NCBI GenBank assembly: GCA_963771275.1
Contig: CAVYSW010000009.1
Location: 224,001 to 288,000, forward strand
Direction: 5' to 3'
Length of the DNA: 64,000 nucleotides
Source of the DNA: an uncultured Gemmatimonadales bacterium
Lineage (GTDB): Bacteria > Gemmatimonadota > Gemmatimonadetes > Gemmatimonadales > GWC2-71-9
Under the pieces are notes generated by a model. The model searched no databases. It was not told the DNA's origin and worked only from the letters and a program-made list of their open reading frames with translations. The translations under genes were made by a program, and so were the position numbers. Each line of letters starts with the position of its first letter. Position 1 is the stretch's first letter. Shown here piece by piece: positions 5,294-62,161 of the stretch.

Positions 5294-5357
5294 AATGTCC
5301 GATGATCAATGCCCAATATCCAAGTACTTGGACATTGGCCATTGATCATTGGACCTT
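5294..5357. repeat. Heptamer palindrome H1
   Basis: AATGTCC-GATGATC-AATGCCC-AATATCC / AAGTACTT / GGACATT-GGCCATT-GATCATT-GGACCTT. Confidence 0.9.
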
Positions 5358-6945: not shown

Positions 6946-7048
6946 AATGCCCTAATGACTAATGTCCTGTGATCGGCGTCCAATGGGCAGGCCTGCGATC
7001 TCCTGCCCTTGCTAATTGGTAATTGGACATTGGGGATTGGACATTGGA
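6946..7048. repeat. Degenerate heptamer palindrome H2
   Basis: AATGCCC/AATGACT/AATGTCC left arm; AATTGGT-AATTGGA-CATTGGG-GATTGGA-CATTGGA right arm. Confidence 0.75.
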
Positions 7049-7149: not shown

Positions 7150-8172
7150 GTGCCGATGCCTCTACCCGCTCCGCCCGGACCGGCGCGACGACGTGCGCGG
7201 TCTCAGCGGTGCAGCCACTGGTGCGTCATCACGTGGCTGGTCGCGCTCCCGGCCTGCGCGCCGGCGGTTCCCACCGACCTCGTGTGGGTCGAGATCCCAG
7301 AGGGCGCGCCGGTCGAAGCCGTGGCGGAGTCGCTCGCCGTGCACGGCATCGTTCCCTCGGCTGAAGGGTTCGTGCGCCTCGCGCGATACGACGGCCAGTA
7401 CCGCGATATCAAGCCCGGGCTCTATCCCCTGCCGCCACGCATGGGCCGGTACAACGCGCTATCCACCCTGCTCAAGGGTGTCGGACGGGTGCGGGTCATC
7501 GAGGTGCGGGAGCGGATGACGCTGATCGAGCTGGCTGACGCGCTGGTACAAACCCTCGGGGTGGGGCGCGCAGAGGTGCTGGCGGCCGCGAGCGATTCCG
7601 CGCTCCGCGCCCAGGTGGGCGCGGCGGGCCCGACCATCGAGGGGTATCTGTTCCCCACGACCTACCATGTGCCCTTCGACGCGTCGGTGCCGGTAATCCT
7701 CGGCCAGATGGCGGACACCTTCGAGGCGCGCTGGCGGCCCGCCTGGAACGCGCGCCTCGACACGCTCGGGCTCTCGCGTGACCAGGTGGTGATCCTCGCC
7801 TCGATCATCGCGGGGGAGATGCCGCTCGGCGACGAGCGCTTCCAGGTGGCGTCGATGTACCACAACCGGCTCGCCCGCCGGATGCGGCTCCAGGCTGACC
7901 CCACGGTGGTCTACACGCTGGGCGAGCGTCGTCGCCTGACCTTTGCGGATTACCGCGTCGCGTCGGACTACAACACGTACACGATCAACGGCCTTCCGCC
8001 CGGCCCCATCGGGCAGCCGTCCACCGAGAGTCTCGAGGCCGCGCTCTACCCGGCGACGACCGATTTCCTGTACATGGTGGCCGGGCCCGACGGGTCCCAC
8101 GCGTTCTCGCGCACGTACGTTGAGCACCTGCGGACGATTCGGGAGATCCGGGGCGGGGGGAGAGGGCGGTGA
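7150..8172 (+). CDS. mltG: Endolytic transglycosylase MltG
   Basis: EGYLFPTTY, LASII.GE, RLQADPTV.Y, YNTY..GLPPGPI motifs; start uncertain. Confidence 0.88.
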   Translation: MPMPLPAPPGPARRRARSQRCSHWCVITWLVALPACAPAVPTDLVWVEIPEGAPVEAVAESLAVHGIVPSAEGFVRLARYDGQYRDIKPGLYPLPPRMGRYNALSTLLKGVGRVRVIEVRERMTLIELADALVQTLGVGRAEVLAAASDSALRAQVGAAGPTIEGYLFPTTYHVPFDASVPVILGQMADTFEARWRPAWNARLDTLGLSRDQVVILASIIAGEMPLGDERFQVASMYHNRLARRMRLQADPTVVYTLGERRRLTFADYRVASDYNTYTINGLPPGPIGQPSTESLEAALYPATTDFLYMVAGPDGSHAFSRTYVEHLRTIREIRGGGRGR

Positions 8173-8175
8173 TCG

Positions 8176-8213
8176 AATGCTCAATGTTCAATGCTCAATG
8201 TTCAATGTTCAAT
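8176..8213. repeat. Heptamer arm H3a (left-type)
   Basis: AATGCTC-AATGTTC-AATGCTC-AATGTTC-AATGTTC-AAT starting 4 nt after the mltG stop. Confidence 0.9.
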
Positions 8214-8327
8214 ACTGGTTTCCAGGTATCCGGCATCGAGTCCCAGGATTGAGTCGTGGGATTCGAATTGCGCTGCCTCGCAGCACTTTGGTGATGCACG
8301 AGGGCACGGTCGCCCCAGAGTTGGGGC

Positions 8328-8699
8328 ATGGCTCCGCGTCGGTACGATCTGGAGGATCGCCTGCTCGCGTTTGCGATCTCCGCGTCTCGCCTCACGACTG
8401 CCTTTCCGCCCAGCATGGTGGGCCGGCACGCCGGGCTACAGCTGATTCGATCTGCGACATCTCCGGCCGCCAACTATGCGGAAGCCGTGGCGGCGGAGTC
8501 CCGCCGCGATTTCGTACACAAGCTCCGCATCTGTCTCAAGGAGCTGCGCGAGGTGCGCATCTGGCTCCGGTTCGTTGTGGGAGTCGAACTCGCTCCGAGC
8601 GCGGCTGTCGTGGGAGCGGGTCGCGAATGCGATGAGCTGATCGCGATCCTCGCCGCCTCCATCAGGACGGCGAAAGGCAGAGCGTCAAGCGATCAATGA
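8328..8699 (+). CDS. Four helix bundle protein (23S rRNA IVS protein / Avd-like family)
   Basis: DLEDRL..FA, QLIRSATS..ANYAEA..AESRRDFVHKL.I.LKE.RE...WL signature; 123 aa. Confidence 0.9.
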   Translation: MAPRRYDLEDRLLAFAISASRLTTAFPPSMVGRHAGLQLIRSATSPAANYAEAVAAESRRDFVHKLRICLKELREVRIWLRFVVGVELAPSAAVVGAGRECDELIAILAASIRTAKGRASSDQ

Positions 8700-8791
8700 T
8701 CAGTGTTCAAATGATCAGTGTTCAATAGATCAGTGTTCAAGTCCCCTCTAGACCTTGGATATTGGATATTGAACATTGATCATTGAACATT
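8695..8791. repeat. Heptamer palindrome H3b
   Basis: (AATGATC-AGTGTTC)x3-like left arm containing the four-helix stop; right arm GGATATT-GGATATT-GAACATT-GATCATT-GAACATT. Confidence 0.9.
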
Positions 8792-8797
8792 GCTCCC

Positions 8798-10012
8798 ATG
8801 ATCCCTATTCCTCCCCGCATCCTGCAGGTGGATGCCGACGCCTTTTACGTCCAGGTCGCCCGCCTGGCGGACCCGGAGGGCGCGGGGCGCGCCGACCTGC
8901 TGCTCGTGGGCGGCTCGCCCAAGGGCCGCGGGGTCGTTACCTCGGCGTCCTACGGCGCGCGCCGGTTCGGCGTGCGATCGGGCATGGCCATGGCACAGGC
9001 GGTGCGGCTCTGCCCCGATGCCCTGGTGGTCGGGGTGCCACGGCGCGCGACGTCGGAGCGCAGCCGGGCGATCGTCGCGGTGCTGGAGCGATTCACTCCC
9101 GTGGTGGAGCCCGCGTCGATCGACGAGATGTACCTCGACCTCTCCGGCACCGAGGGGCTCTATCGCCACGAGCCGCTCGAGGCGACGGCGCGCCGCATCC
9201 GGGAGGCCGTGCTCGCCGAGTCCGCGATCGCGGTCTCGATCGGCGGCGGCACCAATCGGCTCATCGCCAAGCTCGCGGCGGGACGTGCCAAGCCGCACCA
9301 CACGCCCGAGGCGGCGGGCGTGCTGATCGTTCCGCCGGGGGAGGAAGCGGCGTTCCTCCGGACTTTCGATCTGGCGGATATCCCGGGGGTCGGCCCCAGA
9401 TTCCAGGATCGGCTGCTCGCGCTGGGCCTCAAGACGATCCCCGACGCGCTGCGCCACGACCGCGCGGTGCTGCGCCGCTGGCTGAGCCCGCGCGCGGGCG
9501 ACTGGCTCTACGACCGGATCCGCGGGGTGGATGCCTCGACCGTCGAACGCCGCGCCGCCGCCCGGTCGATCAGCCGCGACGAGACCTTCGCGACCGACCT
9601 GGACGCGGACGAGGCGCTGCGGGCCGAGCTGCTCCATCTCGCGGATCGCGCCGCCGCCGATCTCCGCGGCGACGGCTATCGGGTGCGGACCGTGAGTGTC
9701 CGGATCCGGGATCGCGATTTCAAGGACCGGCGCGCAAGCCGGACCCTCGCCGTACCGGTGAGCAGCGATCACGCGATCGCGCAGGTGGCGCTCGAGCTGC
9801 TCGCCCGGCTGCGGCGCGCGCGCCACATTCCCGCCCGGCTGCTGAGCGTGGCGCTGACCCAGCTCTCCCGGGAGCCGTCGGCCGTGCAGGGTGGCTTGTT
9901 CCCGGAAGACGACCTCGCATCGTTGGAGACGGAGCGGGACCGGCGCCTGTCCCGCGCGCTCGACGAGCTGCGAGGCCGGTTCGGCCGGGACGCGGTGGAT
10001 CGGGGGCGGTAG
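8798..10012 (+). CDS. dinB: DNA polymerase IV (Y family)
   Basis: VDADAFY, SASYGARRFGVRSGM, SIDEMY, AKLA, IPGVG motifs. Confidence 0.92.
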   Translation: MIPIPPRILQVDADAFYVQVARLADPEGAGRADLLLVGGSPKGRGVVTSASYGARRFGVRSGMAMAQAVRLCPDALVVGVPRRATSERSRAIVAVLERFTPVVEPASIDEMYLDLSGTEGLYRHEPLEATARRIREAVLAESAIAVSIGGGTNRLIAKLAAGRAKPHHTPEAAGVLIVPPGEEAAFLRTFDLADIPGVGPRFQDRLLALGLKTIPDALRHDRAVLRRWLSPRAGDWLYDRIRGVDASTVERRAAARSISRDETFATDLDADEALRAELLHLADRAAADLRGDGYRVRTVSVRIRDRDFKDRRASRTLAVPVSSDHAIAQVALELLARLRRARHIPARLLSVALTQLSREPSAVQGGLFPEDDLASLETERDRRLSRALDELRGRFGRDAVDRGR

Positions 10013-13447: not shown

Positions 13448-13492
13448 GCGTGCAGCGTGCAGCGTACGGCAGTTACGCTGCACGCTGCACGC
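13448..13492. repeat. CGTGCAG-heptamer hairpin H4 (possible bidirectional terminator)
   Basis: Perfect 19-bp stem GCGTGCAGCGTGCAGCGTA / TACGCTGCACGCTGCACGC between convergent genes. Confidence 0.85.
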
Positions 13493-14628: not shown

Positions 14629-14657
14629 GACCCCTCAGTGAGGGGAGGAATGTATGC

Positions 14658-14741
14658 AATGTCCAATGCCCAAGGCGCAATGTCCAATGTCCTAGGCCCG
14701 TCACTTGGATATTGGACATTGGACGTTGAACATTGGACATT
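14658..14741. repeat. Heptamer palindrome H5
   Basis: Five AATGTCC-like units, spacer, five GGACATT-like units; ends 5 nt before the ATG at 14747. Confidence 0.9.
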
Positions 14742-14746
14742 GAATC

Positions 14747-15635: not shown

Positions 15636-15724
15636 AATGTCCAATGTTCAATGTTCAATACCCAATGTCCAGGGACTTGGACATTGAGCATTGGACATTG
15701 AGCATTGGACATTGGATATTGGAC
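15636..15724. repeat. Heptamer palindrome H6
   Basis: AATGTCC-AATGTTC-AATGTTC-AATACCC-AATGTCC / AGGGACTT / six GRRYATT units. Confidence 0.92.
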
Positions 15725-15751: not shown

Positions 15752-16369
15752 ATGTCCATCCGCACCGCGCTCATCGTGGTCGACCTACAGCCGGATTTCA
15801 TGCCGGGGGGCGCGCTCCCGGTCGCGGAAGGCCACCGGGTGGTCGCACCGATCCGCGACCTCCTGCTGAGCGGCCGGTTCGACGTGGTCGTCGCCACGCA
15901 GGACTGGCACCCCCGGCACCATGCCTCATTCGCCAGCGCGCACGCCGGGAAGCGCCCGTTCGACGTCGTGACGCTGCACGATCACGAGCAGGTGCTCTGG
16001 CCGGACCACTGCATCCAGGGCACACCGGGCGCCGCGCTCCACGAAGGCATCGCGCTGGAATGGGTCGATGCCATCATCCGGAAGGGCTCCGACCCGACCG
16101 TCGATTCCTACAGCGGGTTCCGCAACAACTGGGACGCCTTGGGTGCGCGTCCCCCCACCGGGCTCGGCGGCTACCTCAAGGAGCGCGGCATCACGCACAT
16201 CCTGACGTGCGGGCTCGCGCGGGACTACTGCGTGAAGTGGACGGCCGAAGACGCCGCGGCGGCGGGATTCCGGACCCGGCTGCTGTGGGAGCTGACCCGC
16301 CCGGTGGACCCGGCATCCGACGGGCGCGTGCGGGAGGAGCTGGGAAGGGCGGGAGTCGAGATCGTGTAG
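15752..16369 (+). CDS. pncA: Nicotinamidase/pyrazinamidase
   Basis: VDLQPDF, TQDWHP, WPDHC, RKG, GLARDYCV; AGGAG SD before ATG 15752. Confidence 0.92.
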   Translation: MSIRTALIVVDLQPDFMPGGALPVAEGHRVVAPIRDLLLSGRFDVVVATQDWHPRHHASFASAHAGKRPFDVVTLHDHEQVLWPDHCIQGTPGAALHEGIALEWVDAIIRKGSDPTVDSYSGFRNNWDALGARPPTGLGGYLKERGITHILTCGLARDYCVKWTAEDAAAAGFRTRLLWELTRPVDPASDGRVREELGRAGVEIV

Positions 16370-16444
16370 CGTGTCGCGTGTAGCGTATAGCGTGCCTACT
16401 GCCACCTCTCGCCGCCTTTGCCGCCCCTGCCGCTACTGCCGCTG
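16363..16444. repeat. CGTGTAG heptamer tract followed by a CTGCCGCNN nonamer tract
   Basis: CGTGTAG-CGTGTCG-CGTGTAG-CGTATAG (contains the pncA stop), then about five CTGCCGCNN units (contains the kinase stop). Confidence 0.75.
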
Positions 16445-18011: not shown

Positions 18012-18100
18012 GTTCAATGTTCAATGTTCAATGTTCAATATCCAAGTGCTTGGACATTGAGCATTGAACATTGAGCATTGAACATTGAGCATTGAACATT
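18012..18100. repeat. Heptamer palindrome H8
   Basis: (AATGTTC)x3-AATATCC / AAGTGCTT / GGACATT then alternating GAGCATT/GAACATT x6; core differs from H1 at one base. Confidence 0.93.
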
Positions 18101-29916: not shown

Positions 29917-29940
29917 CGTGCAGCGTGCGGCGTGCAGCGT
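29917..29940. repeat. CGTGCAG heptamer tract
   Basis: CGTGCAG-CGTGCGG-CGTGCAG-CGT just past the DUF456 stop. Confidence 0.6.
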
Positions 29941-41326: not shown

Positions 41327-41402
41327 AATGTCCCATCCCAATATCCCATGGCCAATACCGGACTGGCAACCGTCATCGGCCATCGGCTATCGGCTATCGG
41401 CC
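41327..41402. repeat. Mixed heptamer tract H10
   Basis: AATGTCC..AATATCC-CATGGCC-AATACCG, then ATCGGCY x4 containing the kinase stop. Confidence 0.7.
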
Positions 41403-61106: not shown

Positions 61107-61176
61107 ACCACGCGCCCACGAAGCAAGGCCCGCCGGGCGGGAACCCGCCGGGTGCTAAGTCGTTGCGTTACTTGGG

Positions 61177-61204
61177 ATGGGCCTGAGTGGAGTTGAACCA
61201 CTGA
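61177..61204 (-). repeat. 28-bp duplicate of tRNA-Ile 3' end (att-like)
   Basis: ATGGGCCTGAGTGGAGTTGAACCACTGA identical to 61755-61782. Confidence 0.93.
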
Positions 61205-61309
61205 GCTCAAGCCGCAGACTGAGCAGAACCGCTGATCTGCGCTGATATGCTCCCACGCGCGTGCCCGGGATGGCACACGCGTCACTCCGGCACCTACCGT
61301 TGACGCGGG

Positions 61310-61678
61310 ATGAGCCCAACGCCCGCCGTCTATGCGCACGCCTCGCTGACCCACCAGATCATCGGTGGCTTCTACGAGGTGACAACGCTCTCGGGGCCGG
61401 CTTCCGTGAAGCGGTGTATGAGCGAGCACTGGCGATGGCGCTTGCGGATCGTCGCCTGAACGTGGAGCGTCAGGTCCCCGTTACCGTGCGGTTCAGGGGA
61501 AGGCGCGCTGGCCTCTTCCGGGCGGACGGTGCTGCTCGAGCTCAAGGCTCTCCCGGCACTCGAGCCGGCTCACGTCACGCAAGTGCTCAACGCGCTTCGC
61601 GCACCCGGACTGCACCTCGGTCTGCTGCTGAACTTCGGTCCGCAGCCACAGGTCAAACGCATTATCCAAAGCCGCTGA
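61310..61678 (+). pseudogene. GxxExxY (PD-(D/E)XK-like) protein, disrupted
   Basis: LTHQIIGGFYEV / NALGAGFREAVYE..FRAD / VLLELKA..H..QVLN..GLLLNFG spread across frames; frameshift about 61382, deletion about 61528. Confidence 0.85.
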
Positions 61679-61753
61679 TGGCGCATAAAGACACAGATGG
61701 ACGCAGATTCGGGCGAGTCTGCGTCCATCAGCGCGTTACAGCGTTATCTGCGG
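61671..61753. repeat. 9-10-mer repeat hairpin downstream of GxxExxY
   Basis: GATGGACGCAGATTC / GAGTCTGCGTCCATC stem (61696-61729) within CGCWGAT-type units; related units upstream at 61211-61246. Confidence 0.8.
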
Positions 61754-61755
61754 AA

Positions 61756-61830
<75 letters not shown>

Positions 61831-61921: not shown

Positions 61922-62161
61922 CTATTCCCATTCGCCGCGCCGCTTGCCGGGCTTGGGCCCTTCCGCCTCGTCCCAGTCCTCCTCGATCTCGTCGTAATCC
62001 TCGTATTCGTCCTCGTCGACCTCTTCCTCGTCTTCGTCGTAGTCGTACTCGTCCTCGTCAAGCTCCTCGTCCTCCTCGAAGTCGTCGACATCGTCCTCGT
62101 TCTCGTCGTCATAGCGTGCGGCGACGACTCGCGACGAAACCGACGGATCCCAGGGCCACAT
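61922..62161 (-). CDS. Small, highly acidic protein
   Basis: GGGAGG SD before ATG 62161; long D/E tract punctuated by Y/F/W; basic C-terminal tail. Confidence 0.7.
   Translation of the reverse strand: MWPWDPSVSSRVVAARYDDENEDDVDDFEEDEELDEDEYDYDEDEEEVDEDEYEDYDEIEEDWDEAEGPKPGKRRGEWE

Follow-up and report, generated by a model that had tools for sequence, protein, structure and literature searches.

A four-helix-bundle gene between inverted heptamer arrays as the likely master gene of an intergenic repeat family in a Gemmatimonadales genome

In a bacterial genome whose closest named relatives are Gemmatimonadales (G000; 3.86 Mb, 70% GC, 96.7% complete), the spacer between mltG and dinB is filled by a small four-helix-bundle gene that lies between inverted arrays of heptamers. 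Is this gene a passenger of the repeats, or are the repeats its product? The window in which it lies, by which we mean the whole stretch of 64,000 nucleotides analyzed here, comprises positions 224001 to 288000 of contig C9. A first-pass annotation had taken the gene for a candidate autonomous member of a repeat-element family, acting as an intervening or mobile unit at the mRNA level. Our analysis supports this view in part and leads to the answer that the locus is likely best read as a REPtron-like master cassette whose Avd-like protein is not a transposase.

The anatomy of the spacer proved to be as annotated (Table 1). Five AATGYTC units begin 3 nt past the mltG stop codon (8172), the stop codon of the four-helix gene falls inside a repeat unit (8695-8701), and the right arm, which is complementary to both left arms, ends with its last unit 6 nt short of the dinB ATG (8798). 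What this description of arms and gene had missed was a leader of 117 nt with a conserved promoter-like motif, the core of which, YGCR-N7-YGRT, lies at ∼8279-8294; the motif ends 31 nt upstream of the ATG of the cassette gene. One strain carries 4 additional bases after position 8748 in the loop of the 3' hairpin.

Table 1. Features of the mltG-dinB spacer and further repeats of its family in the window
Feature	Position	Strand	Evidence
Gene-less palindrome, unit family of the window cassette	5294..5354	.	TRF
Single right-type arm, window-cassette family, ahead of the start of the minus-strand gene located upstream of mltG	7009..7048	+	
mltG paralogue, left host flank outside the cassette	7150..8172	+	TIGR00247 (183 bits), PF02618
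Outer left arm, AATGYTC x5	8176..8210	+	Sequence; TRF 8176-8213, 5.4 copies; left-type polarity
Leader, 117 nt, holding the conserved promoter-like motif	8211-8327		
Promoter-like motif, predicted competence-regulon site	8267..8296	+	De novo motif, LL 302 vs 103 shuffled
Four-helix-bundle gene, 123 aa, predicted Avd-like fold	8328..8699	+	TIGR02436/PF05635
Inner left arm, three 15-nt units each of two heptamers, overlaps the stop codon	8691..8740	+	TRF period 15, 3.1 copies
3' hairpin loop, 14 nt	8741..8754	.	
Right arm, five GRWYATT-type units (8757-8791)	8755..8791	+	Sequence, TRF
dinB, right host flank outside the cassette	8798..10012	+	PF00817, PF11799
Gene-less palindrome, window-cassette family	14656..14742	.	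TRF
Gene-less palindrome, window-cassette family	15636..15724	.	TRF
Gene-less palindrome, window-cassette family; origin of apparent skip joints in reads	18012..18100	.	TRF

Elsewhere in the window, arrays of two further heptamer families, whose cassettes lie on contig C3, occupy positions 13448-13492, 16363-16394, 29917-29940 and 41374-41402. The genome holds a second mltG at C3:450176-451144, and two mltG copies are also present in G005, G014 and G019. Near the far end of the window, at 61175-61829, degenerate inverted 9-10-mer repeats enclose a GxxExxY gene that is broken by a frameshift (TIGR04256, in two pieces); the gene adjoins a tRNA-Ile (61756-61829, minus strand), of which ∼30 nt of the 3' end are duplicated at 61175-61205. 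A long array with periods of 6, 9 and 21 nt (61980-62107; score up to 82) probably encodes an acidic low-complexity stretch.

It had also been suggested that the outer arms pair around the gene. This holds for single-stranded DNA, in which the outer arms form 29.8 expected pairs versus 2.4 for the local hairpin, but not for RNA at this locus, where the ensemble gives the outer arms 1.0 expected pairs versus 35.6 for the local 3' hairpin of the inner left and right arms. The latter hairpin reaches −48.2 kcal/mol (z = −8.1; 0/200 shuffles). Rfam contained no matching family at gathering score, only sub-threshold matches to miRNA-like hairpins.

The gene product matches TIGR02436 with 74 bits (cut-off, 24) and PF05635 with 48.4 bits (cut-off, 33.8). 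Its structure is predicted to consist of four helices (pLDDT, 92.6), and the model matches the solved homologues 2RLD and 2GSC (TM, 0.76 to 0.83) and, in agreement with the Avd-like fold proposed for it, Avd itself (4DWL; TM, 0.75; 19% identity). Six residues are nearly invariant (Q38, R41, S45, N49, E52 and E75), and the conserved columns of the 140-row alignment, which read Q, R, S, N, E and E, contain no HUH motif, conserved tyrosine, known nuclease or recombinase motif or other known catalytic motif. The entries 2RLD and 2GSC each contain five chains, and the Xanthomonas homologue is stated to be a pentamer (PMC4990558); by analogy with these homologues, the window protein probably forms a pentamer, too. 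The median arm length is 4.3 units, as measured with an array detector that needs about three. Compared with its orthologue in the congener G001, the gene shows 65% identity, with a dN of 0.33 and a dS of 1.6. Among strains in run X1, we counted 0 substitutions in 640 nt of the gene versus 16 in dinB, a difference that we do not count as evidence because mosaic recombination could produce the same pattern.

Heptamer arrays are abundant throughout the genome. There are 38 period-7 arrays per 0.9 Mb versus 1 in a codon-block shuffle, and 197 in the whole genome versus 2 to 24 for periods of 4, 5, 8, 10, 11 and 13. By single-linkage clustering, 158 of 176 arrays fell into four families (50, 45, 36 and 27 arrays), each containing exactly one cassette. 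All four TIGR02436 genes above the cut-off are armed, each with a heptamer of its own, and a weak fifth match is unarmed. Directly facing complementary arms at a distance of 200 to 1500 nt enclose only these four genes; if inner arrays are allowed, 7/13 long pairs are complementary, one arm having a nearer partner in the 3 extra cases. Likewise, complementary arms were found around only 1 of 600 small genes, which is itself a cassette gene. The genome also has 15 period-8 arrays yet no gene of the octamer clade described below. A decayed, unarmed partial four-helix match lies at C3:757058-757375 (E = 5e-6 with an in-house profile).

The arrays have a polarity, learned from 22 complementary training pairs, such that none of 247 7-mers was found in both orientations; purine content had been tried as the polarity rule before and failed. 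Classified pairs composed of different families stand in the left-then-right order in 13/13 cases, though they are unable to base-pair. The arms abut gene ends, with a median distance of 5 nt on the outer side versus 69 to 89 nt on the inner side, and 83 of the 96 arms adjoining a stop codon lie within 15 nt of it, all distances being based on a crude in-house gene caller (3275 genes) that missed three of the four cassette genes. Arrays of a cassette's own family were enriched within 20 kb of two cassettes (11/15 versus 23/159 and 4/8 versus 11/166), and this local clustering exceeds that around ordinary arrays (0.22 versus 0.15), which we regard as a hint only. No flanking-gene duplication was detected in the loops that were long enough to be compared with host sequence (20/39), and one pair of loops was mutually related. 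The gene-less palindromes at C10:830064-830126 and C4:11662-11724 have 63-nt loops that are related (92% over 37 nt), which suggests that an entire palindrome was copied together with its loop.

The association of gene and arms extends well beyond this genome. TIGR02436 genes were found in 36/41 relatives and 98/151 genomes of the phylum, at 0 to 13 copies per genome. We analyzed 143 loci, 110 of them from relatives, 30 from a search of family genomes and three more from G000, leaving out ∼30 weak or partial matches. Complementary arms flank the gene at 79/138 full loci, the other 59 being without detectable paired arms. For the first 57 full loci of the relatives, the count was 36, versus 0/100 for shifted controls, and arms were complementary in 36/40 pairs from the same locus versus 54/2075 pairs from different loci. 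The association of the four-helix gene with heptamer arms, on which the first-pass annotation had staked its interpretation, is thus borne out. Outside the phylum, 14/54 full homologous loci are armed, all 14 with heptamers that are closer to the units of the window clade, a likeness to which lower host GC may contribute. Of four cyanobacterial plasmid genes that we viewed, two from Nostoc have a clear left arm-gene-right arm order and two have more complex arrays. In plasmids of Planktothrix and Pseudanabaena (L441 and L442), repeat-flanked four-helix genes are located in defence loci, between drmD and pglX and before cas1.

Importantly for the question of what couples gene and repeat, the repeat unit follows the protein lineage. 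In a tree of 140 proteins (104 columns; FastTree only), the window clade has AT-rich heptamers and a separate clade has mostly 8-9-mers. This tree requires 4 switches between period 7 and periods 8 or 9, and none of 500 shuffles gave fewer than 15; if each site is reduced to a single row, the numbers are 2 and at least 11, and shuffles within genomes need at least 7. Protein identity correlates with arm similarity (rho = 0.28 over 2899 pairs from different sites and different genomes; shuffle maximum, 0.086). Where a genome has at least two armed genes (16 genomes), the top units of these genes always differ (mean similarity, 0.18; maximum, 0.69). Since kin share labels, we take the tree signal as a sign of co-inheritance of gene and arms rather than as proof of recognition.

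Gene-less arrays follow the resident gene as well. In samples of 165 to 200 kb per relative, with arrays matched to gene arms by eye, G022, with one octamer-arm gene, had 0 heptamer arrays and 4 octamer arrays of that type, and G029, with one heptamer gene, had 8 heptamer and 0 octamer arrays. All arrays of G026 (11 heptamer and 15 octamer) and G032 (3 and 7) match the arms of their own genes, and G023 had 3 matching heptamer arrays and 1 unmatched octamer array; thus, gene-less arrays mostly match the unit and period of the resident genes in 5/5 sampled relatives with armed genes. In G031, which has 8 genes, of which 6 fetched loci lack detected paired arms, we found 0 heptamer arrays and 1 octamer array, and in G014 and G011, where no gene was found, 1 and 0 arrays, respectively. 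Among 300 family genomes, a palindrome of the window was matched in 15/33 with a window-clade gene versus 16/267 without one, the former number falling to 13 if two matches to the genes' own arms are subtracted and kin being non-independent. The two gene-less palindromes sampled in G001 resemble those of G000 rather than the arms of its own gene, in a sample biased by the query. Altogether, the match of one gene to one repeat family that had been predicted by likeness to RAYTs and REPINs is present in G000 (158/176 arrays; one cassette per family), and the sampled relatives agree with it. We are highly confident that gene and repeat family are coupled.

If cassettes move, orthologous sites should exist without them, and relatives' cassettes do have such sites in G000. 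The 143 loci form 94 site groups, including 71 singletons. Both flanks were found in G000 for 68 loci and are neighbours there for 33, which represent 17 sites: 10 are empty and without array (spacers of −17 to 106 nt), 3 hold gene-less arrays, 2 hold cassettes of G000 itself and 2 are otherwise occupied. One of the empty sites, which precedes a gene that we take to be mnmG, is filled in all six congeners. For the mltG-dinB junction itself, on the other hand, reads, strain contigs and relatives yielded no empty allele, so that the expectation of empty sites was borne out for the cassettes of relatives (10/17) only. Strain contigs in runs X1 and X2 retain the window gene. Read joints skipping positions 8213-8762 were considered as an empty allele and rejected, because their loop and flanking sequence are those of the paralogous palindrome at 18012-18100.

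Among the relatives, a close mltG orthologue followed by a four-helix gene was found only in G001 (mltG, 72%), with the same layout as in the window and a 5.4-kb efflux block standing before dinB. The gene is retained there, but all three arms are built of another heptamer. In five congeners, an octamer right arm stands just before dinB where G000 has its heptamer arm. We conclude that the window copy is likely a resident master, kept behind mltG since the split from G001 while its arms changed in concert. In view of this long residence, of the lack of an empty allele at the junction among the reads and relatives examined and of the absence of an HUH motif, catalytic tyrosine or other known catalytic motif from the protein, we do not call the gene an autonomous member of its family.

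The leader offers a clue to when such a master would act. A de novo motif search over 86 leaders returned YGCR-N7-YGRT at a fixed distance before the start. The window cassette ranked 8th of 3277 genes for this motif and 19th of 3276 when the motif was trained without the genus. With the genus held out in this way, comEA ranked 1st, comM 3rd, a prepilin gene 8th, an integron integrase gene 9th and a Y1 transposase gene 12th, with three cassettes at 2, 4 and 19 and dinB at 1814; the rank of cassette C3b (181) is uninformative, its start coordinate being off. In the relatives, scores of at least 5 were reached by 15/20 Y1 (RAYT-type) and 11/28 comM genes, versus 0/16 dinB and 0/26 mltG genes and 19/3273 genes of G000, the comM, Y1, dinB and mltG counts excluding loci without upstream sequence or hit (originally 30, 30, 19 and 29). 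Most of the Y1 loci (L280-L308) are flanked, by eye, by REP-type palindromes, and three copies in G023 also have heptamer arrays on both sides; because most motif-bearing Y1 genes show such palindromes, true REPtrons appear to share the leader motif. The motif is equally common at unarmed (43/64) and armed (52/78) genes, was found at 3/15 Gemmatimonadota loci of the window's clade and at 1/54 loci outside the phylum, scores low at radC and was not found at dprA. In the genome-wide histogram of motif distances, the peak at 32 nt is equalled in height by others. The ComEA and ComM proteins have their role in DNA uptake, and the leader motif is, judging by the genes that have it, probably a competence promoter.

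Several other genes of G000 came up in this search. The integron integrase gene (C7:6186-7247; TIGR02249 over the cut-off) has the leader motif of comEA and comM, and 2 kb from it lies a weak, unarmed four-helix-like open reading frame (C7:9203-9589). The motif is also located at 31 to 33 nt before the genes at C3 654756, C3 1284664, C10 829432 and C9 351089, which presumably encode an ORF6N-like DNA-binding protein, a DUF559-like nuclease, a Uma2-like nuclease and HolB, respectively.

What, then, would copy the arms? A PF00078 search of the 96.7%-complete genome found no reverse transcriptase (RT), and no Y1 transposase was found in G022, G026, G029 and G032, all of which contain cognate arrays. 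It follows that the known movers are not needed, and an RT or a RAYT acting in trans was rejected as a candidate, neither having been found in the respective genomes. The four-helix bundle is the only protein encoded by the element, and its gene is likely the master gene of its own repeat family. We propose that the gene would be switched on together with the DNA-uptake genes, as its leader predicts, and that the predicted pentamer would then bind the cognate repeat on single-stranded DNA during competence, possibly with about four to five units per arm being read by five subunits. Host recombination or repair enzymes might perform the strand transfer and thereby copy the arms to other gene boundaries. 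The protein would serve as a specificity factor or as a chaperone, in the way that Avd serves its RT, a role suggested to us by its being the sole protein, by its lack of a known catalytic motif and by the approximate agreement between units and subunits.

Three other explanations of the locus have to be weighed against this proposal. According to one, the palindromes are spread by host processes such as slippage, template switching or gene conversion, and a captured gene merely rides along. A passive cargo of this kind could well be a protein without a known catalytic motif, and it would fit the many unarmed genes inside the phylum and outside (40/54), the arrays without a detected partner within 200 nt (87/176) and the persistence of repeats in genomes without the gene (the 16/267 family genomes mentioned above and the octamer arrays of G000). 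We nevertheless consider it unlikely, given that the cargo is nearly exclusive, directly facing complementary arms enclosing cassettes in 4/4 cases, that every family has exactly one gene, that the period tracks the protein rather than the host, and that genomes without armed genes are almost free of arrays. A role in transformation would instead make the system a domesticated one, in which protein and repeats label the cell's own DNA or promote recombination at gene boundaries when DNA is taken up, rather than spreading selfishly. DNA uptake sequences are the model for such a role. It agrees with the leader motif common to comEA and comM, with a gene that is under purifying selection and has long stayed at one site, with the location of arms at gene ends and with chimeric pairs that exchanges in the loops could produce; the patchy presence at 0 to 13 copies per genome, the many independent sites, the different repeat of each paralogue and the number of just ∼180 arrays per genome do not fit it, and the motif at RAYT genes fits parasites borrowing a promoter. 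On balance, domestication strikes us as improbable.

The remaining explanation, an intervening sequence at the mRNA level, had been favoured by the first-pass annotation. Here, the arms would pair in the host transcript and RNase III would cut the stem, making the cassette a free-living relative of the ORF-bearing intervening sequences (IVS) of 23S rRNA. The S23p proteins of the latter belong to the same family and their genes are bordered by complementary sequence that is cut by RNase III (PMC4990558); moreover, the outer arms of the other three cassettes of G000 do pair as RNA (26/27, 20/26 and 60/61 pairs), and the 3' hairpin of the window cassette is very stable. However, at the window locus the RNA fold prefers this local hairpin and does not loop the gene out, and the transcribed strand shows no preference for G·U pairs (9 versus 13; cassettes, 49 versus 46). 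Arrays occupy divergent spacers (15/403) at a rate similar to that of co-directional ones (66/2456), with convergent spacers at 33/405, and non-complementary chimeric pairs are common. Finally, a promoter is predicted inside the left arm, so that the gene's own RNA would miss that arm. We therefore regard cutting at the RNA level as improbable, and the data favour a DNA-level system. That the system acts on DNA and is timed by competence seems to us reasonably probable, whereas for the whole chain, from master cassette through competence-timed binding of single-stranded DNA to the spreading of arms by host enzymes, our confidence is evenly divided. To generalize to TIGR02436/PF05635 proteins as specificity factors of transposase-free selfish elements, which, each as an Avd-like pentamer, would read their own 7-9-nt repeats on single-stranded DNA coming in by natural transformation and recruit host enzymes to place the arms at gene boundaries, is possible but for the present tentative.

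PF05635 is a widespread and structurally solved family without known function that is now tied one-to-one to repeats, with four proteins for four repeat families in G000. The gene-plus-repeat system is real and widespread, and the four-helix gene likely drives short intergenic repeats of bacteria that have long gone unexplained. If our reading of the cassette is right, the spread of repeats is run here by a protein that resembles no transposase; if the protein is passive, the cassette is a variant of the ORF-bearing intervening sequences. The action of the protein as a specificity factor, if true, would explain the excess of heptamers in Nostoc, Xanthomonas and other bacteria. It would also make the ORF-bearing rRNA IVS one landing site of such elements and Avd a recruit from the TIGR02436/PF05635 family.

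How do these cassettes compare with systems that have already been described? Heptamer tandem repeats are reported to be over-represented between bacterial genes and little studied (PMC4692102), and the papers on the arrays in Xanthomonas, Nostoc and Beggiatoaceae give no cause for them (PMC4692102, PMC4679880). Like the arrays of G000, those have about four units, lie near start or stop codons and often form convergent pairs. Row 15 of Rehm's table S2 lists, without comment, an array of four GGGAATC units that lies at the start of XCC0516, which encodes the protein of structure 2GSC (PMC4692102). The main texts of both papers do not mention a helix-bundle or S23 gene, and MacGregor's idea of a repeat-binding protein as the possible mobile agent is offered there as speculation only (PMC4679880). 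We found no link of TIGR02436 or PF05635 to heptamer repeats in the openly accessible full-text literature.

The fold of the window protein relates it to the Avd of diversity-generating retroelements (DGRs), described as an RNA-binding barrel of five subunits that helps a partner enzyme (10.1101/2023.10.23.563531, PMC10053308). In contrast to a DGR, the locus has no RT, template repeat or variable repeat. With the IVS of 23S rRNA, the cassettes share the PF05635 protein (S23p), an ORF between complementary flanks and a sporadic distribution (PMC4990558). ORF-bearing IVS sit in rRNA genes and are cut by RNase III (PMC4990558, 10.1101/2024.02.27.582315), whereas the window cassette, with a predicted promoter of its own, stands between the protein-coding genes mltG and dinB and not inside a 16S or 23S gene; its arms are tandem micro-repeats with many gene-less copies, and G000 shows no RNA-strand signature.

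The closest likeness is to REPtrons and the RAYT-REPIN system, where a single-copy gene also lies between inverted repeats, each paralogue has its own repeat class (PMC3116915, PMC3479197) and gene-less inverted doublets are dispersed in extragenic space; in addition, RAYT genes of Gemmatimonadota carry the leader motif of the four-helix cassettes. REPtrons, however, are described as needing an HUH tyrosine transposase (PMC3116915, PMC3479197), and the cassette protein, with neither HUH motif nor catalytic tyrosine, has a predicted all-helical, Avd-like fold. Unlike the self-folding palindromic REP with its guide tetranucleotide, the cassette arms consist of tandem 7-9-nt units anchored at gene ends, without any excision intermediate being seen in our data, and at the actual RAYT loci in these genomes one sees palindromes of the REP type rather than tandem 7-9-mers. 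The cassette thus works like a REPtron without being one and, because it lacks defining features of REPtrons, rRNA IVS and DGRs alike, we set it apart as a new category.
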